A DNA stretch of 64,000 bases from Mobula hypostoma (GCF_963921235.1 NC_086097.1:4278001-4342000), one strand, 5' to 3'. Shown: positions 28,188 to 64,000, numbered from the stretch's first letter. The notes: generated by a model from the letters alone, not told the origin. Numbers and translations: made by a program.

Positions 28188-28480
28188 GCACTACAGTAGT
28201 GTAGCAGTTAGTGCAACGCTATTGCATCTCGGGGCAACAGAGTTCCGAGTGGCTGGCTATAAGAAGGTTTGTGTGTCCTCCCTGTGACATCATGGGTTTC
28301 CTCCGGGTGCTCTGGTTTCCTCCCACAGTCCAGAGACATACCAGTTAGTAGGCTGATTGGTCATTGTAAATTGTCCTGTGATTAGGCTAGGGTTAAGAAG
28401 GTGGGTTGCTGGGTGGTGAGGCTTGTTGAGATGGAAGGGTCTGTTCATGACAATATCTCTAAATAAAATAAAATAAGTAA
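28188..28480 (+). mobile_element. tRNA-derived SINE (abundant family; other copies about 17070-17370 +, 23125-23405 -, 32725-32965 -, 33030-33205 -, 39020-39355 -, 39900-40200 +, 47730-47830 +, 49990-50065 -)
   Basis: A-box-like head gtagtgtagcagttag, body gggtttcctccgggtgctctggtttcctcccaca, (TAAA)n-type tail. Confidence 0.85.
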
Positions 28481-32561: not shown

Positions 32562-33588
32562 CTGAAGAAACCAAAAAAGGCATTAGTCATTACTCCGTAA
32601 GTACACATTCAGTCATTATGTCATATTATAGAGAAACAAAATCCGCTGTGTCATTTTGTCAGCACATACACACATGAGAATAAATGGCAAGACATTTTCA
32701 TTTTCTTGGCTTTCTTTCTTTTTTTCTTTTTTATTTATCTAAAGATGCAGCAGAGTGACTGGTCCTTGCAGCCCAACATACCCATGAGACCAATTAAATG
32801 ATTAACCGGTATGTCTTTGGAAGTAGGAGGAAACTGGAGCACCTGGAGAAGCCCATGCAATCATGGAGAGAACGTCAAACTCCTTACAGACAGTAGTGAG
32901 AATTGAACCCAGATCACTGGTGCTGTAACAGCGTTACATTAACCACTTTGCTAACTTGCCACCCATTTATGTAGATAATATAGAGCAAGTTTTCTCTCTT
33001 TACGTTTACTTCTTTTCACAATGACATATTAACAGGTACATCTTTGGACTGTGGGAGGAACCCGAAGAACCCAGAGAAAACCCACGCAGTTCATGGGGAG
33101 GGACATGCAAACTCCTTACAGACAGAGTTGGAATGGAACTCTGAACTCCGATGCTGCAAGCTGTAATAGCTTAGTAGTAACAGCTACGCCACCATGTCGC
33201 CCAATTAGATGACATCGTGAATCTAGCCGACTCAATGTCCATAGCCCTGAATACAACATTCCTCTTAATAAAGACATATATCATCTGACATCTAAAGCCA
33301 CACCTTGCTAACAAGGCCAAAAGTTCTATATGTTTCAACTGACGAAATAACTGCAAGGCATTTGATATTTCTCATTAACATCGTCTCATTCAGCAAGACT
33401 GCAGTGAGTCATTTGACCTCCACTATGCCAGTGATCCTCCTAGTGCAACTAGATCAGAATCGGTAGGCTCCACCACAGTGCTGGAGCCAGTGTGGCATGG
33501 CATCTATGCTGGTGGCATTGGTGCTTCCCTCCAGTGATTGCTTGGCAGAAGACAAGCTGTGTTGTGCTCGACTCCAGACCACTGCAAC

Positions 33589-37320: not shown

Positions 37321-37401
37321 TAATGTGATTGATTTATGATTACTAATACTTTGAAATAATTTCATATCCATAATCAAAAATATTGGGGAAAAAAATCTTA
37401 C

Positions 37402-38098: not shown

Positions 38099-40499
38099 TT
38101 TCTTTTTCTCTTATCTTGATGACCTCAGAATTACCTGCAACATGGTATGCTAGATTGTAGATGAATATTAGCTTTATTGACATACAATCAATCCAGGTAT
38201 ATAAGCTATGTTATGTATTTATACCTATTGTGTTTTTTATTATTATTGTTCTTTATCTTATTGTGTGTTTTTTTGTGCTGCATCAGATCCAGAGTAACAA
38301 TTATTTTGTTCTCCTTTACAGTAGTGTACTGGAAATTACATTAAACTATCTTGAACCTTATTTCAATTTTTAACCTAGTGAAGTATTCACAGATGTGGAA
38401 CCTGCTGGTCATTTATTGTTCTTCTCTAACTGTCTCCTGAACTGAATAGCTTACCAGACCCAACTGGGGTGGGGGTGGGGGTGTTGGAGGGGTGCTGCTG
38501 ACACTCGACCGTGTTCATGAATCTGGAGACAGTCATGGGCCAAGCTAGTAATGTCGAAAGGGCAGTCTTCCTTCACCGATGGAATGGATTGGTTTGTATG
38601 ACCTAGTGCTTCTGCACTGCTGCTGAGTATTAAGGATGAAATCAATCATATTCTTTGGGTCTTCAAAGCTTTTCAGACCTACACTTTCCAGCACCTCCCA
38701 GTCTCCACCCAGCTAACAGGAGTCAGCTTCCTCTCGTTTCCAACTCATCACCGGCAGCCTATTTAAACCCAGCTCTCATCCACAGTCCTTTGTTCATCCA
38801 TCAAACCAGCCAGCTCACTGGTTGATCCTAGCCTTCTAACACAACTATGCACCTATACTTAACTAAATAAAACAAAAGTCATTATATTGAAGCATGAGTT
38901 GCCGACCAAAAATAAATAGTGCAAGGACTTCCTCGTGAAATGTGCATGCTTGTACCACACATTTTAAAATGCTATCCATGATATAGATGATTAAAATGTA
39001 GAAGCCAGCAACATACCTCCTAAAAGATTAACTTTATTTGTCACATGTACAGTACACAGAAACATAGAGTGAAATGCATTTTGTATGCATCAAATTAAAT
39101 CAGTGAGGATTGTGCTGGGCAGACCACAAGTGTTGCTATGTTGGTAACAAAATAACACCCTGACAACTGACTAACCCTAACCATATGTGTGTAAAATATG
39201 GGAGGAAATCGGAGTACCAGGAGGAATCCCACATGGTTATGGGAAGAACATGCACATTACATGTTCACCTTACAGACAGCAGCAGGAATTGATGCCTGAT
39301 CAGTGACCACTGGCACTGTAACGTGATGAGCTAACTGCTACACTGCCATGCTGCTCAAATTAAAGTTAGTGAAGGATAAATATTAGGTAATTCACCATTC
39401 CATAGCTGGAATACACATAAAACTGCCCAACACATCACCAGTGCCAGCCCCAGCTGCCACCAAGAACAGAAAATGCAGAAAGGTGCTGGAAAAGGGCCAG
39501 TAACATCATGACGGATGCCTTCCATTCTGCTTATGGGCTATTTGTCCCACTGTCATCAGGGATGCAGCTACATGAGGACCACCAGACTCAAAAATAGTTA
39601 CTTCCCCAAGCAGTAAGGCTGATCAACACCTCCACCCACTAACCGACTGTCCACAACCCCCAACCACCACTACTTTATCATTTCTTGTCAGTCACCTTAC
39701 GTACAGACACTCCTGTGCCTAGTGTCACTTTATGGACATACAATCAATCTATGTATTTAAGCTGTATTATGTTTTTATATATATTTTTTAAAATTATTAT
39801 TGCATTCTTTATCTTATTTTTTTTTGTATTGCATTGGTTCCTAAGTAACATCAATGTTTTCCTTTACGTTTGAGTACTGGAAATGACATTAAACCCTCTT
39901 TGGGACACCACAGTGGTGTAGTGGTTAGCACGATGCTCTTGCATTTTGGGGCATCAGAGTGTGGAGTTGAATTCCGGAGTTGCCTGTACAGAGTTTATAT
40001 GTCATCCCCATGGAATGTGTGGGTTTTCCCTGAGTCCTCTGCTTTCCTCCCACACTCCGAAGACGTATTGGGTAGGATATTGTAAATTGTCCCGTGATGA
40101 GGTTCGGGTTAAATTAGGGTTGTCAGGGGTTGCTGGGGCAGCAAGAATTGAGGAGCTGGAAGGGCTTACTCCATGCATGTCTCTAAATAAGACAAAAATC
40201 ATGAATCTTGAATCTTATTACATCGGACCCACAAATCATCAAAGCATCGAACTCTGATCTGATGGCAATCTGAGTCAGACAACACACGAATCAAAGCACA
40301 ACCCAGTCACCCCCATATGCAGTAAGTCAAGTTCCAGTTCCGAGCGGTGGGGTGATGACCAGATGATACACCATCGGTGGGTGAGCACCCCACAGCGCTA
40401 CCAATGAGTAGCTCTAATGATCATATTAGTTAATACCAGTGATGACCTACAGTCACTAAGCAGGTGTCTCATTGTTTCTGATCATTTAATTAATTGTCC

Positions 40500-41410: not shown

Positions 41411-41640
41411 ACAGAACCTGGCTCTTCAATTTTAACCATAAACAGTGCTTCTGAATTACTTGTGTTTCGATTTTTCCCTGCTGTCCTAAATTAAGATATT
41501 GTAGTTGATGGTGGGGCAAATAGAAATCAGGTCTGGCATAATTCTTGCCCCATTGCAACTCAAATTTATGCAGTCTTAGATTGAAAATTAACAAATGACC
41601 TTGAATTAGCACCTGGTTTGGTAGCAGAGCGGTAACATTG

Positions 41641-42323: not shown

Positions 42324-42339
42324 GAACAGACTTTTATAC

Positions 42340-43900
42340 AGATGAGGGTTAACTTTAAGGTTGAGTCAGTGGTGAGGAAAGCATATGCAATGTTAGCTTT
42401 CATTGCAAGACGTCTAGATTACAAGGATGTGATGCTGAGGCTTTATAAGTCATTGGTCAGATCGCACTTAGAATATTGTGAGCAGTTTTCGGCCCCTTAT
42501 CTAAGAAAGGATGTGCTGGCATTGGACAGAGTCCAGAAGAGATTCATGAGAATGATTCCAAGAATGAAAGTGATAGGGCATGTGGAGTGTTTGATGGCTC
42601 TGGGTCTGTACTTGTGCGAGTTTAGAAGAATGAGGGGGATCTTATTGAAATCTATCAAATGTTAAAAGGCCTAGATAGAGTGGATGTGGAGAGGATATAG
42701 TGGGGGAGTCTAGGACCAGAGGACATAGCCTCAGAAAAGAGGGATGTCCACTGACACAGTGATGAGAGGAATTTCTTTAGCCAGAGAGAGGTGGATCTGT
42801 GGAATTCATTGCCACAGTTGGCTGTAGAGACCAAGTCACTGGGGATATTTAAAGTGGAAGTTGACAGGTTCTCAGTTAGCCAGGACATTAGACTATAAGA
42901 CTGTAAGACATAGGAGCAGAATTAGGCCATTTGGTCCATCGAGTCTGCTCTGGCATTCAATCATGGCTGATCATTTTCCCCCTCCTCAGCTCCACTCCCC
43001 AGCCTTCTCCCTGTAACCTTTGATCTGTGTCCAGTCAAGAACCTATCAAGCTCTGCCTTAAATACACCCAATGACCCAGCCTCCACAACTGCCTGTGGTA
43101 ATAAATTCCACAAATTCACCACCCTCTGGCTAAAGAAATTTCTCCACATCTCTGTTTTAAATGGACACCCCTCTAACCTGAGGCTGTGCCCTCTTGTCCT
43201 AGAACCCTTCCCCCTTCATGGGAAACATCCTTTTCACATCTACTCTGTCTAGGCCTTTCAACATTTGAAAGGTTTCAATGAGATTCCCCTCTCATCCTTC
43301 TAAATTCCAGTGAGTACAGACCCAGAGCCATCAAACGTTCCTTGTATGATAACCCTTACATTCCCAGAATCATCCTTGTGAACCTCCTCTGAACCCTCTC
43401 CAATTTCAGCACATTTTTCTTTGATGAGGAGCCCAAAACTGTTCACAATACTCAAGGTGAGGCCTCACCAGTGCCTTATAAAGCCTCAGCATCACATCCC
43501 TGCTCTTGTATTCCAGACCTCTTGAAATGAATGCTAACATTGCATTTGCCTTCCTCACCACCAACTCAACCTGCAAGTTAACCCTTAGGGTGTTCTGCAC
43601 AAGGACTCCCAAGTCCCTCTGTGTCTCAGATTCCTGGAATCTCTCCCCATTTGGAAAATTGTCTGCACATTTATTTCTGCTACCAAAGTGCATGACCATG
43701 CATTTTCCAACATTATATTTTATTTGTCACTCTTTTGCCCACTCTCCTAATCTAAGTCCTTCTGCAGCCTATCTCTTTCCTCACCAAACATTGAAGGCTA
43801 TGGGGACAAGGCAGGAGAATGGGGTTGAAAGAGATAATTAATCGACCGTGATGTAATGGTGGAGTACAATTGGCGGGGTAATTCTGCTTCTGTGTCACAC
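42340..43900 (+). mobile_element. CR1 (+) interrupted by an antisense CR1 (42888-43783)
   Basis: Host ends ...agccaggacat and resumes cattgaaggctatgggg; the insert begins with the reverse-complemented 3' tail. Confidence 0.85.
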
Positions 43901-45269
43901 AGAGATTGAATGTACCATTATGCCAATCGGGACTTCACAATCAAGCCACTGCATAAATATTAACTGTAAATCTAGGAGTGTTAACTTTTATAATTTCGTA
44001 TCAAATCATGAAACCACTGGATTGTCGGGAAAACTCATCTGGTTCAGTTGCTTGGAATGATTCGAATCTGATCTTCGACTCAGGAATGCACTTAATTTCT
44101 TCACTGGGCCAAGCAAGCTACTTTGCACAGTTAGCAGTGGCCAGTAACTTTCTGCCTGACCACTACAGCCCATGACCAAGTAATAATGAAAAAAAGGTGT
44201 TTTTGTAAGAGAATTCTATTTTTCATCGCACACTGTTTTTATAATTCATTGCTGAAAGACCTGGCTTTACAGTTAACATTGTATCCTTTATGTCCACTTT
44301 CCAAAACCTATTTTTGTCTATCATCCTTTCAGCTCTCTACAGAAAAGTACCAAAAAATGCCAGTAACGTCGTGAAAGATCCCACCCACCCTGCTCACGGA
44401 CTGCTTGCCCCACTCCCATCAGGGAGGAGACTACGTAGCATCCACACCAGGACCACCAGACTCAAAAACAGTTACTTTCCCCAAGCAGTAAGGCTGATCA
44501 ACACCTCCACCCACTAACTCACCCATCACACCCCACAACAACCACTACTTTATTACTTCCTGTCAGAGTCACCTTATGTACAGACACTCCTGTGCCTAGT
44601 GTCACTGTATGGACATACAATCAATTCAGGTATATAAGTCATTTCATGTATTTATATTTATCGTGTTTTTATTATTGTATTCTTTATCTTTCTTGTGCTT
44701 TTTGTGCTCCAACAGATTCAGAGTAACAATTATTTCACTCTTCTTTACACTTGCGTATTGAAAATGACATTAAACAATCTTGAATTTTGAATCTTAAAAG
44801 ATTTTGAAAGCTCAACCAGATACTCTACAGTGTTCTAAACTTGAAGGAATGTGACTATAGTTTGTGTAAATGATTCTTGTAATTTAGTACCTGGCGTTCA
44901 AGAGCAACTGCTCTGCTCATGACCATAAGAAACTGCAGAGAGTTGTGGACACAGCTTGACTTTTTCTTCATGGACTCTGGCTGTACTTCCCACTGCCTCA
45001 GTAACTGAGCCAGCATCATCCATCCTGGGTATTCTCTTTTCTCCCACTGGGCAGAAAGTGCAGAAGCCTGAAAACACATACTACCAGGCTCAAGGACAAC
45101 TTCTAACCATTCAGATTCTTGAATGGGCCTCTTGTACAAAATGATGAACCCATGGCCTCACAATGTACCTTGTTAAGATCCTGCATGTTATTTAACCATG
45201 CTCATTTGGTCTAGGTTTTACGCAACTGGTCTCATACTACAAAGGCACATAAACCTTCTAATAGCCAAG

Positions 45270-45975
45270 TTTTCCATGTGAAGCCCTTTGACCCAACTGG
45301 TCCATTCTGACCAAGGTTTCCATCTAAGCTAATCCCATTTGTCCCTGTTTGGGTTATATCCCTCTAAAGCAGGGTTCCTGGCTAATGGTAGGGGCCCACG
45401 GCATAAAAAGGTGGGGGGCCCCTGCTCTAAATCTTTCCTATCCATACACCTGTCCAAATTAAATATTATTAATCTACCTACCTCAAGCGCTTCATTTGGC
45501 AACTCATTCCTTATATACTGTGCCCTGTGTGTGAAAATGCTGTCCTTCAGGTTCCTTCAAAGCCTCTCCCCTCTCACCCTAAACCCATGTCCTCTGGTGC
45601 TTGATTCCCCATCTCTGGGAAAAGTGTATACACTCAATCTGTCTATGACCCTCATGATTTTATAAGCCTCCATAAGATCACCACTCATTCTCCTACACTC
45701 CATTGAGTAAAGCCCCAAATTGCCCAATCTCTCTCCATCATTCAGTCCATTGACTTTTGGCAACATCATTGTAAATCACATCTGCACTCTTTCTGATGGC
45801 ATGGTGTCCAAACCTGAACAAAATGTTCCAAATGCAGTCTCACTGATGTCATGTTTTACAGCAGTATGACATCCTAGCTTTTATACTCAATACGCTGACT
45901 GAAGAAGCCTAACATTCCAGAAGCTTTACTCACCACCCTGGTTACCTTTGATGCCATTTTCAGGGAACCATGTAC
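45270..45975 (-). mobile_element. Old CR1 3' fragment
   Basis: LGLYSMECRRMSGDLMEAYKIM. Confidence 0.75.
45370..45424. mobile_element. 55-bp hAT-type MITE remnant
   Basis: CAGGG...CCCTG termini flanked by the 8-bp duplication CTCTAAAG / CTCTAAAT. Confidence 0.65.
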
Positions 45976-46019
45976 GAAGTATTTTTTGATTATCATTGAA
46001 TAAGATTGTTTTAAACTCT

Positions 46020-47385
46020 AATAAGACATTGTTAAGGACTATTTAGGAGTATTGTGTGCAGTTTTGCTCACTTACCTATGGAAAAGATGTAAATAAGGTT
46101 GAAAGAGTACACAGAAATTTACAAGGATGTTGCCAGGTCTGAAGGACCTGAGTTATAAGGAAAGATTGAATAGGTTAGGACTGGATTCCTTAAGACGTAG
46201 AAGATTGAGAGGAGATTTGATAGAGCTATATAAAATTATGAGTGGTATGGATAGTATAAATGCAAATAGGCGTTTTTTCCTGAGGCTGGTAGGACTATGA
46301 CCAGAGGTCAAGGGTAAAAGGTGAAAGGTGAAACGTTTAAGGGAAACCTCTTCACTCAGAGGTTGGTGAGAGTGTGGCATGAGCTGCCAGCACAAGTAGT
46401 GCATGATCAATAGTTCAAAAGTTCAAAAGTTCCATTTAATATCAGAGAATGTACGTATACATTATACAACCTGAAATTCTTACTTTCCACAGATGTCCTC
46501 GAAACAGAAGGAAACTCCCCAAACAATGAATGACAGAACAAACCCAAAGCTGCCTGCCTCCCTCCCACACACAAGCAGCATCAATCTTCCCCCTCCCCTC
46601 CTACAAATTATTCAGCAGGAAGCATCAGCATTCCCACCATCCATCATGCAAGCAACAGCAAAGCCCCAAAGAGAGACCAGGGTCTTTGGTCCCTCAAAAG
46701 CTAACTGTTCACTCCAACATTTCGACATCCCGCAGGCTCTATATCTTGCTAACAAGGGAGAGACAGGTATCAATCCTTCCACAGCGACACGGGAGTTAAC
46801 AATGGTTTCAATGTTACAGTCAGTCTGAAGTGCTGCTTTTTAATTTGAGTTCTCCGACTCGAGAATAGTCAAATGGATTACTGAGTGCAACAGCCTCGAA
46901 CAGCCTCTCACTGTCTTCGATTTTCTGCCTCCCTCTATGCTTAAGTATCTGATGCTACAGTCCTAGAGGTTGTCTGACTTCAGGCCAAACCTTGTTGTAC
47001 GAAAACGTGGCCGATCGGCGAGCTCCAAGAACGGGAACACACCGTCATGCAGAGCTGCAGCTTTTGAGGGCCGCTGAAGATCAAAGATTCTGATAGGACC
47101 CCAGCCGTCCTGAAAAGGGAAATAGAGACATTAGAATAGGAGGAATTTAACAGTTTTGCTGATGAGCTAGGAGAAGTTGCTCTCTGGCGCCATCTTTAGC
47201 TCCGGCCAACCATGCAAGCTCAATTTCAATGCTTACGAGAAGTTTGGATGGGTACATAGATGGTAGGGGTACGGAGGGCTATGGTCCGGGTGCAGGTTGA
47301 TGCGACTAGGCAATTTAAATGGTTTGGCATGGAATAGATGGGCCAAAGGGCCTGTTTCTGTGCTGTGCTTTTCCATGACTCAATA
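46020..47385 (+). mobile_element. CR1 3' fragment split by an antisense non-coding retroelement of about 800 bp (46406-47210)
   Basis: Host ...gtagtgcatg | catgcaagctcaatttc. The insert has a (TTTTGAAC)n tail and AAGATGGCG near its 5' end (47188-47196). Confidence 0.75.
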
Positions 47386-48459
47386 ATATTGCGAGTCATA
47401 ATTCTGTACTGACTTAGTTAATGTAAAACAACGTTTTGGCTGACTGCATAACACATACAAAATGCCTGAGGAAATCAGCATCTATGGAAAGGAATCAACA
47501 GTCAATGTTTTGGACTAGGACCCTTCTTCAGGACATTTTGTGTGTGTTGTTCTGGACTACCGGCATCTGCGGAATCGCTTGTATTGCTGTAAATCTTTTT
47601 GCTTTAGCTAATTGTGTCCCTTGGATAACTTGCTGAGCAAAAGAAGACGAAGGCGTGGATAGTGTGTCAGGGGAAGGAAAAGAAATAAATGCAGAGAAAG
47701 AAAACTTCCTTTACGTTCTCTATAGAAATGGATAGCATGATCGCATCGTGGTTAATGTAATGCCGTTACAGCACCAGCAATCTGCTTCAGCTGTCTGTCA
47801 GAAGCTTGTACGTCCTCCCTGTGTCCTTAAGAAAGATATCGGCCCAAAATGTTGTCTGTTTATTCATTTCCATAGATGCTGCCTGGCCTGCTGAGTTTCT
47901 CCACCATATTGTGTGTGCTGTTCTGGATTTCCAGCATCTCTTGTGTTTTTGTCTGAATGAGTTAAGTTTCTGTCTCCATATTGGTTGAAATACGTATTTC
48001 AATATGTTGATGTTTATTTAAACTGTTGGACTGAATCAAATCGTTAAAGTCATTATTTGGTTTTCGTAAAACAGTGTTATCCAAACAGGTTCAAGTATTG
48101 CACAAATAAACAGGGCAGATAATGTCCCAAGTGACAGTTTTCATTGGTTCATTGTGATACCACCTATGTTCTCTTCTGCAAGGTCATTTGTAAAACATTT
48201 GGGAGGACCTGCAAAGATAGTCTTCTCTCAGAAATGTATTTCTGGAACACTTTGGCTGTAACTTTGATTATATAGTAAATCCTAATATGGAAAATGTACA
48301 AATACAAAAATTTCTGACTGGTAATTGATTGAAATGTCTAAGACCAGAGGGCATGCATGTAAGGTGATAGGGGGTAATTCCAAGGGAGATGTGAGAGGCA
48401 AGTTTTTTTTATGTTAGAGTGATGGGTGCCTGGAAAGTGTGGGTTTGTGATAAAGATAG

Positions 48460-49872
48460 GGGTTTGGGGGGTTGCAGATGTCATTCCCTTATTCAAGAAA
48501 GGGCGTAGAGATAGCCCAGGAAATTATAGACCAGTGAGTCTTACTTCAGTGGTTGGTAAGTTGATGGAAAAGATCCTGAGAAGCAGGATTTATGAACATT
48601 TGGAGAGGCATAATATGAATAGGATTAGTCAGCATGGCTTTGTCAAAAGCAGGTCGTGCTTTACAAGCCTGATAGAAATTTTTGAGAATGTGACTCAACA
48701 CGTTGAAGAAAGTAGAGCAGTAGATGTAGTGTATATGGATTTCAGCAAGGCATTTGATAAGGTACCCCATGCAAGGCTTATTGAGAAATTAAGGAGGCAT
48801 GGGATCTAAGGGGACCTTGATTTGTGGATCCAGAACTATCTTGCCCACAGAAGGCAAAGAGTGGTTGTAGATGGGTCATACTCTTCATGGAGGTTGGTGG
48901 CCAGTGGTGTGCCTCAGAGATCTGTTCTGGGACCCCTTCTCTTCGTGATTTTTATAAATAATCTGGATGAGGAAGTGGAGGGATGGATTAGTAAATTTGC
49001 TGATGACACAAAGGTTGGGGGTGTTGTGGATAGTGTGGAGGGCTATCAGAGGTTACAGTAGAACATCGATAGGAAGCAAAACTGGGCTGAGAAGTAGCAG
49101 ATGCAGTTCAACCCAGATAAGTGTGAGGTAGTTCATTTTGGTAGGTCAAATATGATGGCAGAATATAGTTTTAATAGTAGTGTGGAGGATCAGAGGGATC
49201 TTGGGGTCCATGTCCATAGGACACTCAAAGCTGCTACGCAGGTTGACTCTATAGTTAAGAAGGCATACAGTGCATTGGCCTTCATCAACCGTGGGACTGA
49301 GTTTAAGAGCCGAGAGGTAATGTTGCAGCTATTGGAGTATTGTGCTCAGTTCTGGTCACCTCACTACAGGAAGGATGTGGAAACTATCGAAGGTGCAGAT
49401 GAGATTTACAAGGATGTTGCCTGGATTGGGGAACATGCCTTACGAGAATAGGTTGAGTGAACTTGGCCTTTTCTCCTTGAAGAGACAGAGGATGAGAGGT
49501 GACTTGATAGAGGTGTACAGTATAAGATGAAGAGAGGCATTGATTGTGTGGATAGTCAGATGTTTTCTCCCAGGGCTGAAATGGCTAGCACAAGAGGGCA
49601 CAGTTTTAAGGTGCTTAGGAGTAGGAACAGAGGAGATGTTAGGGTTAAGTTTTTTACTCAGAGAGTGGTGAGTGCGCGGAATGGGCTGCCAGTAACAGTG
49701 GTAGAGGAGAGTATGATAGGGTCGTTTAAGAGACTCCTGGACAGGTAAATGGAGCTTAGAAAAATAGAGGGCTATGGGTAACCCTGTGTAATTTCTAAAG
49801 TAAGGACATGTTTGGCATAGCTTTGTGGGCTGAAGGGCCTGTATTGTGCTGTAGGTTTTCTATGTTTCTATA
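48460..49872 (+). mobile_element. CR1 (TTTCTATG-tail subfamily), 5'-truncated, with stops and frameshifts
   Basis: PLFKKG...NYRPVSLTSVVGK, YMDFSKAFDKV, KFADDTK. Confidence 0.92.
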
Positions 49873-50441
49873 TTTCTATGTTACATTAGAGGCTTTCAAG
49901 AGACGATTAGGTAAGACAATAAAAACATAGGAGCAGAATTAGGTTACTCATCCCATCAAGTCTTCTTCATATGAATTTACTTTGAATTTTGAACCCAGAG
50001 GAAACCCACATGTACACAGGAAGAAGTACAAACGTTCTTACCGAGGATGTTAGATTTGAGATCTGAGCTGTAACAGCATTGTGTTGTTACACTCCGAACT
50101 GTAACAGCATTGTGCTACCTGTTACACTCCAAATTGCACAGCATTGTGCTATCTGTTACACACCGAGCTATACAGCATTGTACTAACTGTTACACTCTGA
50201 ATTGTAACAGCATTGTATTGTTACACTCCGAACTGTAACAGTATTGTGCTACCTGTTCTGCTCCGAGCTGTAATAATGTTCTGCTAACCCTTACACTCTG
50301 AGCTGTAACAATGTTGTTCCAACTGTTCCACTCCAAACAGTAACAGTGTTGTTGTTACTCTCTGAACTGTAACAGCTTTGTGCTATCTGTTACCCTCTGA
50401 ACTGTAACAGGGTTATGCTAACTATTACACTCCAAACGGTA

Positions 50442-52031
50442 ATAAGACAATAAGACCATAAGATATAGGAGCAGAGGTAGGCCATTTGGCCCATTGATTC
50501 TGCTCCACCATTCACTCATGGGCTGATCCAATTCTTCCAGTCATCCCCACTCCCCTGCCTTCTCCCCATACCCTTTGATGCCCTGGCTAATCAAGAACCT
50601 ACCTATCTCTGCCTTAAATACACCCAGTGACTTGGCCTCCACAGCTGCTTGTGGCAGCAAATTCCACAGATTTACCACCCAAAATAATTTCTCCACATCT
50701 CTGTTCTAAATGTACATCCTTCAATCTTGAAGTTGCGCCCTCTTGACCTAGACTTCTCTACCATGGGAAATAACTTCGCCATATCTAATCTGTTCAGCCC
50801 TTTTAACATTCGGGATGTTTCTATGAGATCCCCCCCCCCCCCGCCCATTCTCCTGAACTCCAGGGAATACAGCCCAAGAGCTGCCAGATGTTCCTCATAT
50901 GGTAACCCTTTCATTCCTGGAATTATTCTTGTGAATCTTCTCTGAACCCTCTCCAATGTCAGTATATTCTTTCTAAAATAAGGAACCCAAAACTGCACAC
51001 AATACTCCAAGTGTGTCTCACGGGTGCCTTATAGAGCCTCAACATCACATCCCTACTCTTATATTCTATACCTCTAGAAATGAATGCCAACATTGCATTT
51101 GCCTTCTTCACAACCGACTCAACTTTAGGGTATCTTGCACAAGGACTCCCAAGTCCCTTTGCATCTCTGTATTTTGAATTTTCTCCCCATCTGAATAATA
51201 GTCTGTCCGTTTATTTCTTCCACCAATGTGCATGACCATACACTTTCCAACATTGTATTTCATTTGCCACTTCTTTGCCCATTCCCCTAAACTATCTAAG
51301 TCTCTCTGCAGGCTCTCTGTTTCCTCAACACTACCCCCTCCTCCACCTAGCTTTGTATCATTGGTGAATTTAGCCACAAATCCGTAGTCCAAGTCATTGA
51401 CACACATCGTAAAAAGCAGCGGTCCCAACACCGACTCCTGTGGAACTCCACTGGTAACCGGCAGCCAGCCAGAATAGGATCCCTTTATTCCCACTCTCTG
51501 TTTTCTGCCAATCGGCCAATGTTCCACCCATGCCAGTAGCTCCCCTGTAATTGCATCGGATCTTATCTTGCTAAGCAGCCTCATGTGCAGCACCTTGTCA
51601 AAGGTCTTCTGAAAATCCAAGTACACCATGTCTACCCTGCTTGTAATTTCCTCAAAAAATTGCAGTAGATTAGTCAGGCAGGATTTTCCTTTCAAGAAAC
51701 CCTTCTGGCTTTGGCCTATCTTGTCAGGTGCCTCCAGGTACTCCGTAATCTCATCCCTAACAATCAATTCCAACAACTTCCCAACCAGTGATGTCAGGCT
51801 AACAGGTCTATAGTTTCCTTTCTGCTGCCTCCCACCCTTCTTAAATAGCGGAGTAACATTTGCAATTTTCCAGTCATCCGGTACAATGCCAGAATCTATC
51901 GATTCTTGAAAGATAATTGTTAGTGCCATCACAATCTCTCCGGCTACTTCCTTCAGAGCCCGAGGGTGCATTCCATCAGGTCCAGGAGATTTATCCACCC
52001 TCAGGCCATTAAGGTTCTCAGTCGTAATTTT
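50442..52031 (-). mobile_element. CR1 (TCTTATGG-tail subfamily) inserted in the 35-bp satellite
   Basis: KSPGPDGMHPR...DWKIANVTPLFKKG...NYRPVSLTS (308-aa ORF). Confidence 0.92.
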
Positions 52032-52153
52032 CACTGCACATACTTCACTTCCCTGACACTCGTGAACAGCATTCTGCTAACAGTTACGCTCCAAACTGTA
52101 ATAGCGTTGTGCTGTTACTGTCTGAGCTGTAATAGCATTATTCTAACAGTTAC

Positions 52154-52802
52154 TGTGGTTAAGAAGGCATACGGTGCATTGGCCTTCATCAATCATGGGA
52201 TTGAGTTTAAGAGCCGAGAGGTAATGTTGCAGCTATATGGGACCCTGGTCAGACCCCACTTGGAGTACTGTGCTCAGTTCTGGTCGCCTCACTACAGGAA
52301 GGATGTGGAAACCATAGAAAGGGTGCAGAGGAGATTTACAAGGATGTTGCCTGGATTGGGGAGCATGCCTTATGAAAACAGATTGAGTGAACTCAGCCTT
52401 TTCTCCTTGGAGCGATGGAGGATGAGAGGTGACATGATCGAGGTATATAAGATGATGAGAGGCATTGATCGTGTGGATAGTCAGAGGCTTTCTCCCAGGG
52501 CTGAAATGGTTGCCACAAGAGGACACAGGTTTAAGGTGCTGGGGAGTAGGTACAGAGGAGATGTCAGGGGTAAATTTTTTATGCAGATAGTGGTGAGTGC
52601 GTGGAATGGGCTGCCGGCAACGGTGGTGGAGGCGGATACGATAGGGTCTTTTAAGAGACTTTTGGATAGATACATGGAGCTTAGAAAAATAGAGGGCTAT
52701 GTGTAAGCCTAGTAAATTCTAAGGTAGGGACATGTTCAGCACAACTTTGTGGGCTGAAGGGACTGTATTGTACTGTAGGTTTTCTATGTTTCTATGTTTC
52801 TA
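52154..52802 (+). mobile_element. Young CR1 (TTTCTATG tail) inserted in the satellite
   Basis: Open frame VVKKAYGALAFIN...RLLDRYME. Confidence 0.92.
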
Positions 52803-55486
52803 TGTTACTCTCCAAACTGTAACAGCGTTGTGCTAACTGTTCCACTCTGAGCTGCAATAGTGTTCGGCCAGCTGTTAGATTCCGAACTGTAACAGCATTG
52901 TACTAACTGTTGCACTCCGATCTGTAACAGCATTGTACTAACTGTTGCACTCCGATCTGTAACAGCATTGTACTAAATGTTACTCTGTGAAATGTAACAG
53001 CATTGTGCTAACTTCTCCACTCTGAGCTGTAAGTTTTCTGCTAATTCTTACTCTCCGAACTTCAATAGTGTTCTGCTAACTGTTACACAATAAGCTGTAA
53101 CAGCATTGTGCTACCTGTTGCACTTCAATCTAGAACAGTGTTGTGATAACTGTTACTCTCTGAACTGTAACAGTATTGTGCTAACTGTACCACTCTGAGC
53201 TGTAATAGTGTTCGGCTAACTGTTACTCTCTGAACTGTAATTGCATTGTGCTAACTGTTACTCTACAAGCTGTAATAATGTTGTGCTAACTGTTACACTC
53301 TGAGCTGTAACAAGGTTGTGCTTTCTGTTACACTCTGAGCTGTAGTAGTATTCAGCTAACTGTTATACTCTGAACTGTAACAGCATTGTGCTAACTGTTA
53401 CTCTCCGATCTGTAAAGGCATTGTACTAAATGTTACTCTGCGAAATGTAACAATGTTGTGCTAAGTTTTCCTCTCTGAGCTGTAATAGTTTTCTAACTGT
53501 TACTCTCCGAACTTTAATAGTGTTGTGCTAACTGTTACACACTAAGCTGTAACAGTGTTGTGCTAACAGTTACACTCTGGTCTGTAACAGCTTTGTGCTA
53601 ACTGTAACTCTCTGAACTGTAAGAGTGTTGTGCTAACTGTTACTCTCCAAGCTGTAATAATGCTGTGCTAACCTTTACACTCTGAGCTGTAATAATGTTG
53701 TGCTATCTGTTACACTCTGAGCTGTAACAGTGTTGTTCTGTTACTCTTCAAGTGTAATAACGTTGTGCTCAATGTTACATTGTGAGTTGTAACAGCGTTG
53801 TGCTAACAGTTACTCTTCAAACTGTAATAATGTTGTCCTAACAGTCCATTCCAACCTGTAAAAGCATTGTGCTTATTGATACTCTCCGATCTGTAACAGC
53901 ATTGTGCTAACTGTTACACTTCAAGTAGTAATAAGACCATAAGACCATAAGATATAGGAGCAGAAGTAGGCTATTCGGCCCATCTAGTCTGCGAAATTTA
54001 AGTGTTGTGCGAACTGTTACTGTCCTGAGCTACAACAGTGTTGTGCTGTTACTCTCCGAGCTGTAATAATGTTGTGCTCACTGTTATACTGTGAGCTGTA
54101 ACAGTGTTGTACTGTTACAATACAAACTGTAACATTGTTGTTACACTCCTATCCTCAATGTGTTAACTGTTAGACCCCAAACTGTAACAGTGTTTTGCTA
54201 AGTGTTACTGTCTGAACTGGAACAGCATTATGCTAATTGTTTCATTCTGAACTGCAGAGGCATTGTGCTGTTACTCTCTGAGCTGTAACAACATTGTGCT
54301 AACTGTTCTCTCAGAACTGTAACAGCATTGTGCTAACAGTTAATCTATGAGCTGTAACAGTGTTGTGCTAGCTGTTCCACTCTGAGCTGTAATAGGGTTC
54401 TGTTAACTGTCACTCCCCGAGCTCTACTAGTGTTTTGCTAACTGTTCCATTCCGAGCTGTAAATGGGTTCAGTTAACTGTTACTCTCTGAACTGTGCTAT
54501 AGTTTTGCTAACTGTTACTCTCTGAGCTGTAATAACATTGTGTTAACTGTTACACTCCGAACTGTAACAACGTTGTGCTGTTACTCTCCAAGTGTAATAA
54601 CATTGTGCTAACTGTTGTTCTCCAATCTGTAACAGCATTGTGCTAACTCTTACTCTCCGAGCTGTATCAACATTGTACTAACTGTTACTCTCTGAGCTGT
54701 AATAATGTTGTGCTAACTGTTACACTCCGAGCTGTAACAGCATTGCGCTAACTGTTCCGCTCTGAACTGTAACAGTAAAGTGCTCACTGTTAGACTCTGA
54801 ACTGTAACAGTTTTGTGCTGTTACCCGCCAAGCTGTAACAGCGTTGTGCTAACAGTTCCACTCTGAGCTGTAATAGTGCTCAACCAACTGTTACTCTCCA
54901 AACTGTAACAGTAATATGTTAACTGTTACTATTAGAACTGTAAAAGCATTGTCCTAACTGCTACTCTCTGAACTGTACAGTGTTGTGCTATCTGTTCCAC
55001 ACTAAGCTGTAACAGCATTTTCTAACTGTTACACTCCAAGCTGTAACAGTATTGTGCTAACTGTTACCCTCTGAGCTGCAACATCATTGTGCTATATGTT
55101 ACTCTCCAAGTTGAAACGGCATTGTGGTTACTGTTTCACTCCGAAATGTAACAGCAATGTGTTATCTGTTACACTCTGAACTGTAACTGTTGTGCTAACT
55201 TTTATTCTCCATACTGAAACAGTATTGTGCTAACTGTTCCATTCCAGACTGTAACAGCATTGTGCTAACTGTTCCATTCCAGACTGTAACAGCATTGTGC
55301 TAACTGTTCCATTCCAGACTGTAACAGCATTGTGCTAACTGTTCCATTCCAAACTGTAACAGCATTGTGCTAACTGTTACTTTCTGAACTGTAACAGTGT
55401 TGTTCCAACTGTTACATTTGAGCTGTAATAGCATTCTGCTAACGGTTACTCACTGAATTGTGACAGCACTGTGCTGACTGTCCCAC

Positions 55487-55972
55487 TGTCAGGGCGCTGG
55501 AGCAGAGATCCGACTGCAGACCCAGTACTGTGAGATTAATTGAGTAACAAATCCCGAGGTGCAATCAAAGTTCACGTCAAAGCTCAGGCAGAAATCAAAA
55601 CATCCAGAGAAACCCAAAAACCAGAATTGGGAAAGAGGCAGAGTCGATATTCAGATGGACAGAGTTCAGATACAAATGCCGGAAAAGCTCAGGAAAACTC
55701 ACTGGCACAATCTGGCAGCAAACAGGTGAAAACACAGGACTGAAATACACTGAGCGATAAACAGAGAGGCAGATGATAGGTGGAGCACAATGAGACACAG
55801 GTGGCAGAAATACAGGTAATAATGGGAAACAGGTGAGAGACAGAGTACTCAGTAATACAGGGGCCGAAGTAGAGCAGGAGCGGGGACAGGAGCACATGGC
55901 AATACAAAACTATAGACTGACAGCTAGGGGGAAAACACACACTAAGACAGAGTTCAGCTGGAGGTACTGACA
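55487..55972 (-). repeat. 3' LTR (486 bp) of the Gypsy element
   Basis: TGTCAG...CTGACA inverted termini. A purine-rich tract (GGCGGGGCGGGAGGG on the minus strand) lies immediately upstream at about 55976-55991. Confidence 0.88.
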
Positions 55973-58578
55973 GTACCCTCCCCGCCCCGCCTCTACGGAC
56001 ACCTCCTGGCATCATGGCAGGTAGAGCTGAGTGATGGTAATGAAAGTCCCTGATGAGAGAGGGGTCCAGAATGTTACCGGCGGGGACCCAGCACCTCTCC
56101 TCAGGACCGTAGCCCTCCCCGTCCACAAGGTACTGGAGGCCACAGCCCCAGTGACAAACGTCCAGCAGTTGGCGCACCGTGAAGGCCTCTGACCCATTGA
56201 TGAGCTGTGGAGGAGGGAGGTTTTGGGGACAGGACACAGGGGGTGGCTCATGAAAGGCTTGACGCGTGACACATGGAAGGTGGGATGAATGCGGCGGAGA
56301 GTGGGGGGAGCTTGAGATGGACAACAGCAGGGCTGATGACTTTAGCAATGGGAAAGAGGCCGATGAAGCGAGGGGTGAGCTTGCAGGAATTCACCTTGAG
56401 GGGCAGGTCTCAGGTGAAAGCCACACATGCTGTCCCTGGTGGTAACGTGGGGCCTTGGAGTGATGGCAGCCAGCTTGACACTTGATCCTAGCAGAGACAC
56501 AGAGAAGGGCAGAGTGAGTGCGCCTCCACGTCTGCTGACAATGCCTCGGCAGATGGAACGCCAACCTCCTCCTCCTGGGCAGGAAACAGTGGAGGTTGGT
56601 AGCCAAGGCGGCACTTGAAAGGGGACAGACCGGTGGATGAGGACAGATGAGAGTTGATGGCGTATTCGGCCCAGGGTAGCTGCTGACTCCACGTGGAGGG
56701 GTTCTGGGAGACCAGACACTGCAATACTGTCTCTAGCTGTTGGTTGGCCCGCTTGGTCTGGCTGTTGGTCTGTGGGTGGAATCCTGGAGACTGACTCACA
56801 GAGGCACCCAGAAGATTACAGAATGCCCTCCAGAAGTTGGATGTGAATTGACAGTCCCTGTCTGACACAACGTCTACAGGTAAACCATGTAATTTAAAAA
56901 CATGTAGTACTAGTAATTTGGCTGTTTCTTTGGCCAAGGGGAGTTTAGGTAAAGGAATGAAGTGTACAGACTTGGAGAAACGATCAACTACTGTGAGAAT
57001 GGTGGTGTTACCTTCTGATGGGGGAAGACCGGTGACAAAATCCAGGGCAATGTGGGATCAGGGTCTCTTGGGGATAGACAGACCAGCAGGTGACCGGTTA
57101 GAGTTCTTGCCTTGAGCACAGACCGAACAGGCTGAGACAAAGTTGAGGATGTCATCTCCCATGGAGGGCCACCAGAACCGCCAACTGATGAAGGCCTGAG
57201 TAGACTTGGTTCCAGGGTGACAGGATAACCGGGAAGAATGACCCCACTGCAATACCTGTGGGCGGACAGAGCTGGGAACATAAACACGGTTAGTGGGGCA
57301 TTGACTAGGGGCTGCCCCGCTCTGTCGAGCAGCTTGCACAATGAATTCAATGTCCCATTGCGCTGCACCCAGGAGACAGTGAGCAGGGAAGATGATATTG
57401 CATACCTCAGGGGTCTCAGAGGCAGGAAATCTTCGGGAGAGGGCATCAGGTTTTCCATTCTTGGAAATGGGGTGAAGGACAGAGTAAAATTGCATTTGAA
57501 AAAAACAGGGACCAACGAGCTTGACGGGAGTTGAGATGCTTGGCTGTATGGATATCTTCCGGATTCTTGTGATCAGTCCGGACTAAGAATGGCACCTTTG
57601 CTCCCTCCAGCCAATGCATCCACTCCTCCAGAGCGAGCTTCACAGCCAGCAGCTCCCGGTTTCCGACATCGTAATTCCACTCCGTGAGAGGAGGCGGTGA
57701 AAGAAGAAGGCGCAGGGGTGTACCTTCTCATCCTTGGCCGAGTGCTGAGAGAGAACAGCTCCTACACCAATGTCAGACGCATTCACCTTCACTATGAACT
57801 GCCTGTCAGTGTCAGGTTGAATCAGGATGGGGGCAGAGGTGAACCGTTCCTTCAGGTCAGAGAATGCTTTTTCAGCAGCAGGGGACCAGGAGAATCTGAC
57901 AGCAGATGAGGTAAGAGCAGCCAGTGTACTGTAATTTCTGATGAAGCGGCAACAGAAATTAGCAAAGCCCAAGAAGCGTGGCAACTCCCGACGAGTCGAA
58001 GGGTGGGGCCATTCGACCACTGTCTTGACCTTCTGTTGGTCCATCTGAATGGAACCGCCTGAAATTACATACCCCAGGAAGGAGATGTTATGGTGATGAA
58101 ACTCACATTTCTCAGCCTTCACAAAGAGCTGGTTCTCCAGAAAGTACGAATGTGACCTGTCTGTTCAGCAAGGGACTTAAATAAAATCAAAATGTCGTTG
58201 AGATACACAAAAACAAATTGCTTCAGCATGTCCCTGAGAACGTCATTTACCAGGGCTTGGAAGATGGCGAGTGCATTGGTGAGAGCAAATGGCATGACCA
58301 GATACTCGTAATGGCCTGAGGTGTGTTGAAGGCCGTCTTCCACTCGTCCCTTTCGCGGATGCGGACAGATGGTAGGCGTTATGGAGATCAAGCTTGGTGA
58401 AAACTGAGGCTCCTTGTAGTAGTTCAAATGCCGAGGTCATGAGTGGAAGAGGGTAATGGTTCTTAACAGTGACTTCATTCAATCCTCGGTACTCAATGCG
58501 TGGACAAAGGAAAAACTGGCACCAGCAGGGGAGGAAGACGGCCGGATGATGCCTGCAGTCAGACACTCTTGGATGTAC
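55487..58578 (-). mobile_element. Gypsy/chromovirus (Sushi-like) LTR retrotransposon, 5'-truncated, frameshifted pol (RT-RNaseH-integrase-chromodomain)
   Basis: [39 protein letters not shown] integrase zinc finger, [16 protein letters not shown], chromodomain [17 protein letters not shown]. Confidence 0.93.
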
Positions 58579-59784
58579 AGTGTTACTCTGTGAACTCTAA
58601 CTGTTACTTTCCGAACTCTAACAGCATTGTGCTAACTGTTCCAGTCCGAAGTGAAACAGTGTTGTGCTAACATTCCATTCCGAACTGTAACAGCATTGTG
58701 CTAACTGTTACTCTCTGAACTGCAAAAATGTTATAACTGTTACTCTCTGAACTGTAACAGCAATGTTTTAACTGTTACACTCCAAACTGTTGCGGTGTTC
58801 TGCTAACTGTTACTCTCCAAGCTGTAACAGCATTGTGCTAATTGTTAGTCTCAGAGCTGCAACAGTGTTGAGCTATCTGTAACTCTCCGAACTGTAACAG
58901 AATTCTGTTAATTGTTGCTCTCTGAAATGTAACAGTGATGTGCTAACTGCTACTCTCCAAACTGTACCAGCATTCAGCTAACTGTTCCACTCTGAGCTGT
59001 GATAGTGTTTGGCTAACTTTTACTCTTCAAACTGCAACAGCTGTTGTGCTGTTACTCTCTGAACTGTAACAGCGTTTTGCTAACTATTACTATCTGAGTT
59101 GTAACAGCATTGTGGTAACTATTCCTCTCGGAACTGTATCAGCAATGTGTTAACTGTTACACTCCAAACTGTAAAGGCGTTGTGCTAACTATTACTCTCT
59201 GAACTGTAACAGCATTGCGTGAACTGTTACTCTCTGAACTGTAAAAACATTGTGATAACTGTTATTTACCAAAATTATGTTGTGCTAACTGTTCCGTACT
59301 AAGCTGTAACAGGTTTTTTCTGTTACAGTCCGAGCTATAACAGCATTCTACTAACTGTTACTCTCTGAACTGTAACAGTGTTGTGCTAACTTTTACTCTC
59401 CAAACTGTTACTGCATTGTGCTATCTGTTACTCTCCGAACTGTAACAGTGTTGTGCCAACCTGTAACAGTGTTGTACCAACTAGTCCATTCCGAACTGTA
59501 AAGGCATTGTGCTGTTACTCTTCGAACTGTAACAGCGTTGTACGAACTGTTCCCTCCAATCTTTAAAAGTGTTGTGATACCTGTTACTCACCGAGCTGTA
59601 ACTGCATTGTGCTGACTGTTACTCTCCGAGCTGTAATAGTGTTGTGCTAACTGTTCCTTTCTGAACTGTAACGGCATTGTGCCAACTGTTCCAGTCTGAA
59701 CTGTAACGGTGTTGTGCTAAATGTTCTATTCGGAACTGTAACAGTGTTGTTCTAACTGTTAGTCTCCCAGCTGTAACAGCATTG

Positions 59785-61000
59785 GAGTGTATGGGGTGTC
59801 AGGGAGGGGTAGCACCTCTGGTGGGGGAACATATCGCGTCCTTTTCAAAGCGGTTAGTCCACCTTTGGTCCCCACCTGGCAGTCAGCTCTCACCTGTGGC
59901 TCGTCGTAGCTGTTTGCATGTGACAGCGGCCATACCCCAGGCAACGGCTTCAACAAGCCGTCTAAACCAGGTAGCCAATGGGTCTCAAACCCTCGGTGAG
60001 ATAAGGAGTTGTCTATCCCAGCATGTGAAGACAGACTCCGGCGGATCGAGTCGACGAGACCAATGGAAGGTCCAACGGTCAAGAAGGCAGACTCTGCAAG
60101 TGTTGTAGAACGTGTAGAGCATGATAAGACACAGCAGATGTCCTGGTCATCCACTGCGCCTAGTCCCATCTCCAGCCATCTCGACTCTGTCTTGCCACTG
60201 GATCCAGATGGGAATTGGGAAGAGTTCAATTGTGTCCAGTTCTGGTCGCCTCACTGTAGGAAGGATGTGGAAGCATTGGAAAGGGTACAGAGGAGATTTA
60301 CCAGGATGCTGCCTGGTTTAGAGAGTATGGATTATGATCAGAGATTAAGGGAGCTAGGGCTTTACTCTTTGGAGAGAAGGAGGATGAGAGGAGACATGAT
60401 AGAGGCATGCAAGATATTAAGAGGAATAGACAGGGTGGATAGCCAGCACCTCTTCCCCAGGGCACCACTGCTCAATACAAGAGGACATGGCTTTAAGGTA
60501 AGGGGTGGGAAGTTCAAGAGGGATATTAGAGGAAGGTTTTTTACTCAGAGAGTGGTTGGTGCGTGGAATGCACTGCCTGCGTCAGTGGTGGAGGCAGATA
60601 CACTAGTGAAGTTTAAGAGACTACTAGACAGGTATATGGAGGATTGTAAGGTGGGGGGTTATATGGGAGGCAGGGTTTGAGGGTCGGCACAACAATGTGG
60701 GCCGGAGGGCCTGTACCTTTCTATGTTCTATGTTCTAAGAGAGTGTGAGGCTGACGCTGCGCAACTCTCCCTCACTTAAGTCCAAATCAAGTGCTAGTCT
60801 CGACACCATCATATAGCTGGCTGGTGGCATAGTGGCATCAGTGCTGGACTTCGGGGCAAGAGGTTCTGAGATCGAATCCGGCCAGCTCTCATGCATGCTC
60901 TACTTCCGTGCTGGGTTGAGCATCGAGCTAGCAACTTGACCTCATAAAAAGTACTAATTGCGTCAAAGTCTTCATCAATAACAATGGACAAACCTTATCT
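59785..61000 (+). mobile_element. Composite insert in the satellite: RTE-like non-coding element (59785-60812) containing a CR1 (60225-60736), followed by a tRNA-SINE (60813-60950)
   Basis: CR1 flanked by AAGAG (60220-60224 and 60737-60741). SINE A box TGGCATAGTGG, B box GATCGAATCC. Satellite TAACAGCATTG on both sides of the whole insert. Confidence 0.75.
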
Positions 61001-64000
61001 TAACAGCATTGTGCTAACTGTTCCATTCTGACCTGTAAAGATGTTGTGCTAACTGTTACTCTCTGAACTGTAACAGCAATGTGTTGACTGATGCACTCCA
61101 CTCTGATCTGAAGTTGTGTTCTACTAATTGTTCCGCACTAAGCTGTAACAGCTTTTTTCTAACTGTTACACTCCAAACTGTAACAGCATTGGGCTAACTG
61201 TTCCACTCCGAGCTGTGATAGTGTTCAGCTAACTTTTACTCTCCGAACTGTAACAATGTTGTGCTGTTACTCTCCAAACTGTGACAGTGTTGTGCCAACT
61301 GTTCTAGTCCGAACTGTAACAGCGTTGTGCTAACTGTTACTCTCTGAATTATAACAGCTTTGTGGTAACGGTTCTGCTCTGAACTGTTGTAGCAATGTGT
61401 TAACTGTTATAGTCCGAACTATAACAGAGTTGTGCTAAATGTTCCATTCCGAACTGTAACAGCATTGTTCTAACTGTTACTCTTCTAGCTGTAACAGCAT
61501 TGTGCTAACTGTTCCATTCTGTACTTTAAAGATGCTGTGCTAACGTTATTCTCTGAGTTGTAACAGCATTGTGGTAACTGTTCCACTCCGAACTGCAGCA
61601 GAAATGTGTTAACTGTTACAGTCCGAACTGTAACAGCATTGTGCTAACTTTTACTCCCCAAACTGTAGCAGCATTGTGCCAATGGTTCCAGTCCGAACTG
61701 TAACAACATTGTGCTAAATGTTCCATTCCGAACTGTAACAGCAATATGTTAACTGTTACAGTCTGAATTGTAACAGCATTGTGCTAACTGTTCCATTCTG
61801 AACTTTAAAGGTGTTGTGCATACTGATAGTCTCTGAACTGTAACAGCAATGTCTTAACTGCTACACTCCACTCTGAGCTGAAATTGTGTTGTTCTAACTG
61901 TTCCGCACTAAGCTGTAAAAGCTTTTTTCTAACTGTTGTACTCCGATCTGTAACAGTATTGTACTAACTGTTCCTCTCTGAACCGTAACAGCGTTGCGTG
62001 AACTGTTACTCTCCAAACTGTAAAAGTGTTGTGATAACTGTTACTCACCAAAATTTTGTTGTGCTAACTGTTCTGCATTAAACTGTAACAGCTTTTTTTC
62101 TGTTATACTCCAAGTGTAACAGCATTCTACTGTTACCCCCAGAACTGTAACAGCATTGTGCTAACTTTTACCCTCTACATTGTTACTTCGTTGTGCTATC
62201 TGTTATTCTTCAAACTTTAACAATGTTGTGCTAACAGTTACTCTTCAAACTGTATCAGTGTTGTGCTAACCGTTACTCTCCGACCGGGAACAGCATTGTA
62301 CCAACTGTTCCATTCCGAACTGTAAAGGCATTGTGCTAACGGTTACTCTCTGAACTGTAACAGCGTTGCACGAACTGTTACTCTCCGATCTGTAAAAGCG
62401 TTGTGATAACTGTTACTCACAGAGCTGTAACTACATTGTGCTGACTGTTACTCTCCGAGCTGTAACAGTGTGTGCTACCTGTTCCACTCTGAGCTCCAGC
62501 AGCATTGTGCCAACTGTTCCAGTTCGAACTGTAACAGCGTTGTGCTAAATGTTCCATTCTGAACTGTAAAGGTGTTGTGCTGTTACTCCCTGAACTGTAA
62601 GAGCAATGTATAACTGCTACACCCCACTCTGAGCTAAAATTGTGTTGTGCTGTTTCACTCTAAACTATAACAGCTTTTTTCTAACTGTTACACTCCAAGT
62701 TGTAACAGCATTGTACTAAATGTTACACTCTGAACTGTAACAGCATTACAGTTTTACTTTTACTCTCCGAACTGTTACTGCGTTGTGCTAACTGTTACTC
62801 TCTGAACTGTAATAACGTTGTCCTAACTGTACTCTCCAACCCAGAACAGCGTTATGCCAACTGTTCCATTCTGAACTGTAAAGGCATTGCGCTAACTTAC
62901 TCTCTGAACTGTAACAGTGTTGCACGAACTGTTACTCTCCGATCTGTAAAAGTATTGTTATAACTGTTACTCACCGAGCTGTTTCTGCATTGTGCTGACT
63001 GTTATTCTCTGAGATATAACAGTGTTGGGCTAATGGTTTCTCTCTAAACTCTAACAGCATTGTGCTAACTCTTACTCTCTAAACTGTAACAGCATTGTGC
63101 TAACTGTTACTCTCTGCACTGTAACAGTGTTGTACTAACTGTTACTCCCTAAACTGTAACAGCTTTTTTCTAACTGTTACACTCCCAACTGTAATAGTGT
63201 TGTGCTAACTGTTAATCTCTGAACTGTAACAGCTTTGTGCTAACTCTTACTTTCCGACTGCAACAGCATTTTGCTAACTTTTACACTTGGAACTGTAATG
63301 GTGTTGTGTTAACTGTTACTCTTCGAGTTGTAACAGCGTCGTGTTAACTGTTACTCTCTGAATTGTTGTACTAACTGTTCTACACCAAGCTGTAACAGCG
63401 TTGTTCTAACTGTTACATTCCAAACTTTAACAGTGATGTGTTAACTATCACTCTCTGAAATTTAACACCTATGTGTTAACTATTACTCTCTGAGCTGCAA
63501 CAGCAGTCTGCTACCTGTTGCTCTCTGAGCTGATACAGCGTTGTGCGAATTGTTACTCTCCAAACCGTAACAGTGTTGTGCTAGTTGTTACTCTCCAAGC
63601 TGTAACAGTGCTGTGCTAACTGTTACTCTCTGAACTGTAACAACATTGTGCTAACTGTTACTCTCTGAGTTGTAATAGTGTTCGGCTTACTGTTGCTCTC
63701 TGAAACGCAACAGCGTTGTGCTAACTGCGACTCTCCGAACTGTAACAGTGTTGTTTTAACTGTTCCACTCTGAGCTGTAATAGTGTTTGGCTAACTGATA
63801 CTCTCTGAACTGTAATAGTGTTGTGCTATCTGTTACTCTCTGAGATGTCATGGTGTTGCGTTAACTGTTGCACTTGAAACTGTAACAACATTGTGCTAAC
63901 TTTTCCACTCCGACCTTTAGTAGCGTTGTGTTAACTGTAACTCTCTGAATTGTAACAGCAATGTGCTAACTGTAACTCTCCAAACTGTAATAGCATTGTG

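Follow-up and report, generated by a model that had tools for sequence, protein, structure and literature searches.

A tandem array of about 208 copies of a 35-bp unit occupies the far part of the window, by which we mean the whole stretch of 64,000 nucleotides analysed here, and this satellite is almost certainly derived from the head of a SINE. The array is probably a local minisatellite of SINE origin which expanded on the spot and has since become a decaying fossil, and the stub of a SINE body attached to its first unit is quite likely the actual parent copy. Because the parent has mostly disappeared, the beginnings of minisatellites are difficult to trace. At this locus the parent family, the junction, the seam and the later insertions are found together, and the SINE-satellite pattern is carried to a probable cartilaginous fish, the repeat families suggesting a ray or shark as host. 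The pattern as such has been described already, the 35-bp unit and the probable single locus being what is unusual here; the locus alters no concept and nothing indicates a function.

Layout of the array and its insertions

Tandem Repeats Finder reports a 35-bp tandem period from 50068 to the end of the window. By wraparound alignment to the satellite consensus, from which all block and unit boundaries were taken, the first base of the array is 50062 and the array consists of 218 unit pieces, 207 of them full, in six blocks. This agrees with a previous reading of the DNA, the sequence-only reading, which had counted about 200 copies and had correctly placed the stub, the array start and two SINE heads at 28199 and 39916. 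The same reading had let the satellite run throughout 49990..64000; six blocks are indeed present, but of the 13,939 bases between 50062 and 64000 they make up no more than 7,272, with five retroelement pieces lying between them. The features are as follows.

28189..28460, plus strand: SINE copy of the same family as the stub, full-length comparator
32949..33199, minus strand: SINE copy, comparator for the junction gap, with a clean 15-base gap against the junction
39906..40184, plus strand: SINE copy of the same family as the stub, full-length comparator
49991..50061, minus strand: SINE body stub, 71 bp, with a degraded B-box region and the beginning of the central domain, without the 3' half
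50062..50442, minus strand: satellite block 1, 11 full 35-bp units, attached to the SINE stub
50443..52057, minus strand: LINE 3' fragment with an RVT_1 domain, after which the array continues in phase
52058..52154, minus strand: satellite block 2, 2 full units and pieces
52155..52803, plus strand: second LINE 3' fragment, about 90% like 25508-26139 and 41682-42316, with a possible 6-bp target duplication
52803..53931, minus strand: satellite block 3, 32 full units
53932..54004, minus strand: LINE insertion within the array, consisting of a very short tail
54005..55481, minus strand: satellite block 4, 42 full units, including a locally duplicated stretch of young age at about 55217-55356
55487..58596, minus strand: broken LTR-retrotransposon piece (one LTR, at about 55487-55972, and fragments of integrase, RNase H and RT) without the 5' part
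58597..59784, minus strand: satellite block 5, 34 full units
59785..61000, no strand assigned: 1.2-kb composite insertion with a nested LINE piece at 60229-60716
61001..64000, minus strand: satellite block 6, 86 full units, continuing beyond the window

The far end of the array lies beyond 64000 and hence outside the window, and no satellite units were found to the left of the stub. The array phase is kept across the LINE pieces, the first of which we take, by its tail, to be of the CR1 type, and on either side of the 1.2-kb insertion stands one copy of an 11-bp stretch of satellite sequence, an exact target duplication (59774-59784 and 61001-61011). By eye, the LINE entry points at 50443, 52155 and 53932 are seen at the arms of an inverted repeat in the unit, where the LINE tails have a few bases in common with the target. 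Inside the 1.2-kb insertion, at 60815-60960, there is a different tRNA-like short element, which has a look-alike on the opposite strand at about 40900-41020 (by eye). The Rfam family MIR533 is matched at 19156-19274 with 60 bits, below its gathering score of 80; the matching sequence is an interspersed palindromic repeat, further copies of which lie near 1426, 2086, 24227 and 47823.

Identity of the units to the satellite consensus is 81% on average and 80-82% in each of the six blocks. Pairwise identity between units has a mean of 0.71 and is flat across lags 1-30, which is the pattern of an array without concerted homogenisation. A regular higher-order repeat was considered and rejected, there being no regular period, only blocks of 4-8 units that recur at 80-88%. 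The four consecutive units at 55217-55356 are nearly identical, so local duplication in the array continued into recent time.

The parent SINE family, the unit and the junction

The SINE family is represented by seven copies, which were aligned, and by an eighth fragment, at 47734, picked up by profile search. It is about 280 bp long, has an A-rich tail, occurs in long-head and short-head forms and is interspersed, with 8 copies or fragments in the 64 kb besides the stub; the copies are 70-85% identical to their majority sequence. Judged against general consensus motifs, the best A-box match reaches 10-11 of 12 positions in all 8 copies, lying at the expected head position in 5 of them, and a B-box match of 8-9 of 9 positions is present in 6 of the 8. 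No tRNA was called by ARAGORN or by Rfam in the window and in 32840-33220, a weak null for copies that are 15-30% decayed. For this reason, the description of the head as tRNA-like, made in the sequence-only reading, is drawn solely from the A- and B-box motifs. The parent is likely, as we presume, V-SINE HE1 of sharks and rays, which would be a similar element of about 280 bp with A and B boxes and an A-rich tail, V-SINEs being marked by a conserved central V domain. The SINE 3' profile has weak matches to LINE ends in the window, at 34659-34712 (E 0.018), at 25525-25565 (E 0.047) and, more weakly, at two more ends; the partner LINE of V-SINE HE1 is given as HER1 in the accessible part of PMC3747384. 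Two SINE copies of the family, one long-head and one short-head, stand head-to-tail on the minus strand at 32741-33199, the first being truncated just before the second.

Aligned to the majority sequence of the seven copies, the satellite consensus, taken as a doubled unit, scores 38, a value that none of 5000 shuffles attains. With single copies the match is significant at 28190 (0/5000 shuffles) and 39905 (1/5000), weak at 33200 (50/5000) and 39340 (116/5000), and not significant at 32965 (270/5000), 17070 (955/5000) and 23420 (4982/5000). Among 5,660 tiles outside the array the best two are the heads at 28199 and 39916 (scores 35 and 34), followed by unrelated sequence at 14301 with a score of 32. 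When the CpGs of the unit are restored, 18-24 of 32 columns are matched without gaps in six SINE heads. A SINE profile built from the seven other copies, with the junction not included, gives 140 matches in the window. Of these, 129 fall in the array, the others being the 8 SINE copies, the junction, a LINE end and a weak match within the LTR piece. Those in the array, to the right of 50130 and with the weak LTR-piece match excluded, are on the minus strand in 129 of 129 cases and start at model positions 9-23. Column-permuted arrays yield no profile match in 28 of 30 cases and one weak match in the other 2, against 114 for the unpermuted units. The origin from a SINE head, as proposed in the sequence-only reading, is thus upheld by both shuffling and permutation.

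From 50128 down to 49991 the junction is covered by a single profile match (model positions 11-132, E 2.7e-12), and the stub itself scores 41 against the SINE majority, equalled by 0 of 5000 shuffles. The claim that the SINE body runs into the satellite exactly where its head belongs therefore holds as far as one match spans both, but 15 SINE bases are missing there and the register is inexact. Against the SINE copy at 33199 the junction shows a single clean 15-base gap, from the head to the B-box region, while its alignment with the other three long-head copies is less clean. The stub ends at model position 132 of 283, short of the SINE terminus. Thus a body stub does adjoin the array, as had been claimed of the parent SINE, yet the 3' half of this SINE was not found in 40301-50000; since it is missing, the left side has been rearranged and units there could have been lost too. 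At 49881-49990 the stub is broken off on its 3' side by remnants of other retroelement tails stacked on one another.

In the unit, the head segment is followed by the same bases as the 15-base gap in the stub, and because of this one early deletion accounts for both the seam and the gap. Judging from this seam, the unit appears to reach from the A box as far as the beginning of the B-box region and to have been closed on a 3-base microhomology. A 36-base duplication with a 1-base loss, followed later by the 15-base deletion, also fits, with more steps. The course of events was then probably that a SINE of tRNA type entered the minus strand some 12 kb upstream of a serpin exon, and that about 15 bases between head and B-box region, seen as the present gap, were lost at a presumably early time. 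The segment between the A box and the beginning of the B-box region would have been duplicated head-to-tail via the 3-base microhomology common to both ends, as the seam suggests, and slippage and unequal exchange would have extended the array away from the body in the irregular blocks observed. The array was finally methylated, lost CpGs and received the five retroelement insertions.

It is unlikely, though worth weighing, that the stub is a second, 5'-truncated SINE of the same family which was annealed to the unit later, the true parent being lost or lying at the far end. The join lies where the unit and the SINE B-box region agree over about 10 bases, and microhomology joins are expected for truncated 5' ends; five other retroelement pieces entered the array, the left flank is rearranged, and the 15-base gap would be explained without a deletion. 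Against a later joining, the stub is terminal to about 208 units of the same orientation with none beyond it, the post-gap bases are already present in the seam of the unit, and squamate SINE-derived arrays usually finish in just such an extended terminal unit, according to the accessible part of PMC10702118.

Occurrence in other organisms and copy number

Block 6 was taken as a query of 3,000 bases (322 words) against 12 listed sequencing runs, and its words are present in 9 of them. The share is 0.95 in four runs of one sample of organism A, which is possibly the source of the window, so these runs are not independent; it is 0.39-0.40 in four runs of one sample of organism B and 0.05 in one small run of organism C, and no block 6 words were found in three tiny runs of organism A. 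The region 46400-50170, which includes three units only, was further compared with contigs of four runs, 84-100% of each run being covered. The junction is found in organism B (in both B runs) on one 554-base contig, which matches 49922-50169 without gaps and with 4 differences in 248 bases and which, like organism A's own contig, extends about 300 bases further, to approximately the start of the first LINE. At position 50061 all contigs of organism B carry the more SINE-like base. In the small run of organism C (65 million letters) the three units were not covered. The junction being shared with organism B, a step-by-step comparison across species is feasible.

Over four orthologous pieces, with four LINE pieces excluded as paralogous, 36 of 1,691 bases differ in run X7 (2.1%). 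The divergence of the array estimated from the word share is about 2.8%, which indicates that the array has scarcely turned over since the split of A and B.

Summed depth over the three units is 171, 407, 121 and 0 in the four runs, the single-copy depth in the three large runs being near 11, 42 and 6 and that over LINEs about a million. The units thus stand at about 10-20 times single copy in three of four runs, where 6-16 fold is predicted from the window's own array; contig depth is not identical with copy number, and sister arrays less than 80% alike would escape detection. Such a low depth fits one or very few loci. The high genomic abundance of classical satellite DNA was not found by this indirect depth measure, which agrees with the expectation of the sequence-only reading that the satellite does not occur widely. 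A search for an exact 27-base pattern of the unit had 0 matches in metagenome and viral contigs, which is uninformative for an animal repeat.

These depths bear on a reading, which we regard as very unlikely, of the array as one outlying member of a multi-locus family of SINE-derived satellites with its origin elsewhere, like the squamate sSat families. The unit depth is at or slightly above the prediction, a many-unit contig may count once, and diverged related arrays would go unnoticed at the 80% limit of likeness. Against this, interspersed repeats reach a depth near a million while the units reach 121-407, the excess can be explained because the array continues past 64000, and concerted homogenisation is lacking at a mean pairwise identity of 71%. 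That the likeness to the SINE head is a matter of chance, or of convergence of a simple palindromic repeat beside a scrap of SINE, is hardly credible: three of the seven single copies do lack a significant match and the unrelated tile at 14301 comes close to the best heads, but the shuffles and permuted arrays speak against it, and strand, model position and adjacency agree.

Age, function and known parallels

At two CpG positions of the unit, the 207 units are divided among CG, TG, CA and TA as 52/45/80/10 and 23/80/60/9, a pattern of CpG decay with p values of 8e-8 and 1e-17 that implies germ-line methylation. At the 28 other columns the units differ from the consensus by 11%, about 10 times the A-B per-lineage distance, so the array would be much older than the split of A and B if rates are equal. 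No gradient of overall head-likeness along the array was found (rho -0.03, p 0.69). At unit column 11 the SINE-like base is commoner near the stub (84 versus 113 units, median positions 55304 versus 59598, p 0.003, the units not being independent), with an excess in the first two blocks alone of p 0.057.

The unit contains an inverted repeat of 7-8 bp which is perfected by a G-to-A change in 95% of the units and in 0 of 6 SINE heads. A selected hairpin was rejected, since arm pairs number 1045 of 1346 against 1047 in shuffles and compensatory changes number 5 against 7.2. Single units fold no better than shuffles (3 units, z -1.7 to +0.4); the folding of a two-unit junction gave a z of -2.9. 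A Pol III promoter in the array was likewise rejected: the A box is matched exactly 3 times over about 208 units, and the sole B-box match lies inside a LINE. Without an intact promoter the array is in all likelihood neutral, its spread being due to DNA-level events rather than to retrotransposition; a neutral expansion with no sign of function is the best reading. It is rather improbable that the layout of the Pol III promoter sets the unit ends and that the perfected inverted repeat let the duplication reach hundreds; were this true, and were A-to-B-box arrays to recur independently across rays, the locus would document, in a form that can be dated, a path from SINE to satellite that is open to repetition.

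The array is situated upstream of a serpin coding exon, at a distance of about 12 kb, with two chordate-type serpin exons on the minus strand at 37397-38098 and 32269-32586. The neighbouring gene had been named SERPINA10; a serpin it is, but that name is unconfirmed, the best solved relatives being corticosteroid-binding globulin and alpha-1-antitrypsin.

The closest parallel is given by sSat1-3 of squamates (Vassetzky et al. 2023, PMC10702118), which in the accessible sections of that paper are SINE-derived satellites whose units measure 70-290 nt, whose terminal unit is extended and which show a subtelomeric tendency; earlier examples of SINE-derived satellites are judged inconclusive there, and occurrence outside squamates is left open. 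As in sSat1-3, so far as those sections describe them, part of a tRNA-related SINE is in tandem, a longer terminal unit continues into the SINE, units number up to hundreds (sSat units being about 81-88% alike), and close species share orthologous loci. By the definition of sSats, the unit (35 bp) is shorter than the SINE (about 280 bp) and there are at least 4 middle units (207 full). Unlike sSat1-3 as presented there, the unit measures 35 bp instead of 70-290 and covers only the A-box side of the head, and the array, probably at one locus, has five insertions and no homogenisation; its terminal unit stops short of the SINE terminus, contrary to the usual sSat pattern, to which exceptions are reported.

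In humans, 7,276 tandem repeats of transposable-element origin are given in the accessible part of Ahmed and Liang 2012 (PMC3389668), where Jurka and Gentles 2006 is cited on such minisatellites. By that account Alu- and other element-derived minisatellites are similar in that part of a SINE is duplicated locally, sometimes via short direct repeats, and then expanded; the Alu-derived cases differ in averaging about 2.3-2.4 units, against about 208 here, and Alu is 7SL-derived. Amphibian Hy/Pol III, Xenopus satellite 1/OAX, Rana/polIII and PolIII/TAN are also tRNA-related tandem repeats, but in the available parts of PMC10702118 and PMC9659126 their units are at least 200 bp and a parent SINE is unconfirmed, whereas family and junction are visible here. 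None of the SINE-derived cases among the table rows available from the review PMC9659126 is from sharks or rays. No report of an elasmobranch SINE-derived satellite or of the 35-bp repeat was found in the full-text literature, subscription journals and Repbase being outside this scope, and the 35-bp repeat is not reported in the accessible passages of PMC5499810, PMC6887750 and ray-genome preprints, whose supplements and repeat libraries may list it.

The window holds a second tandem array, at 2605-7461, with about 135 copies of a purine-rich 36-bp unit at 90% matches. Its source was not found within the window; it is younger, has strong GC and AT skew and adjoins LINE fragments.
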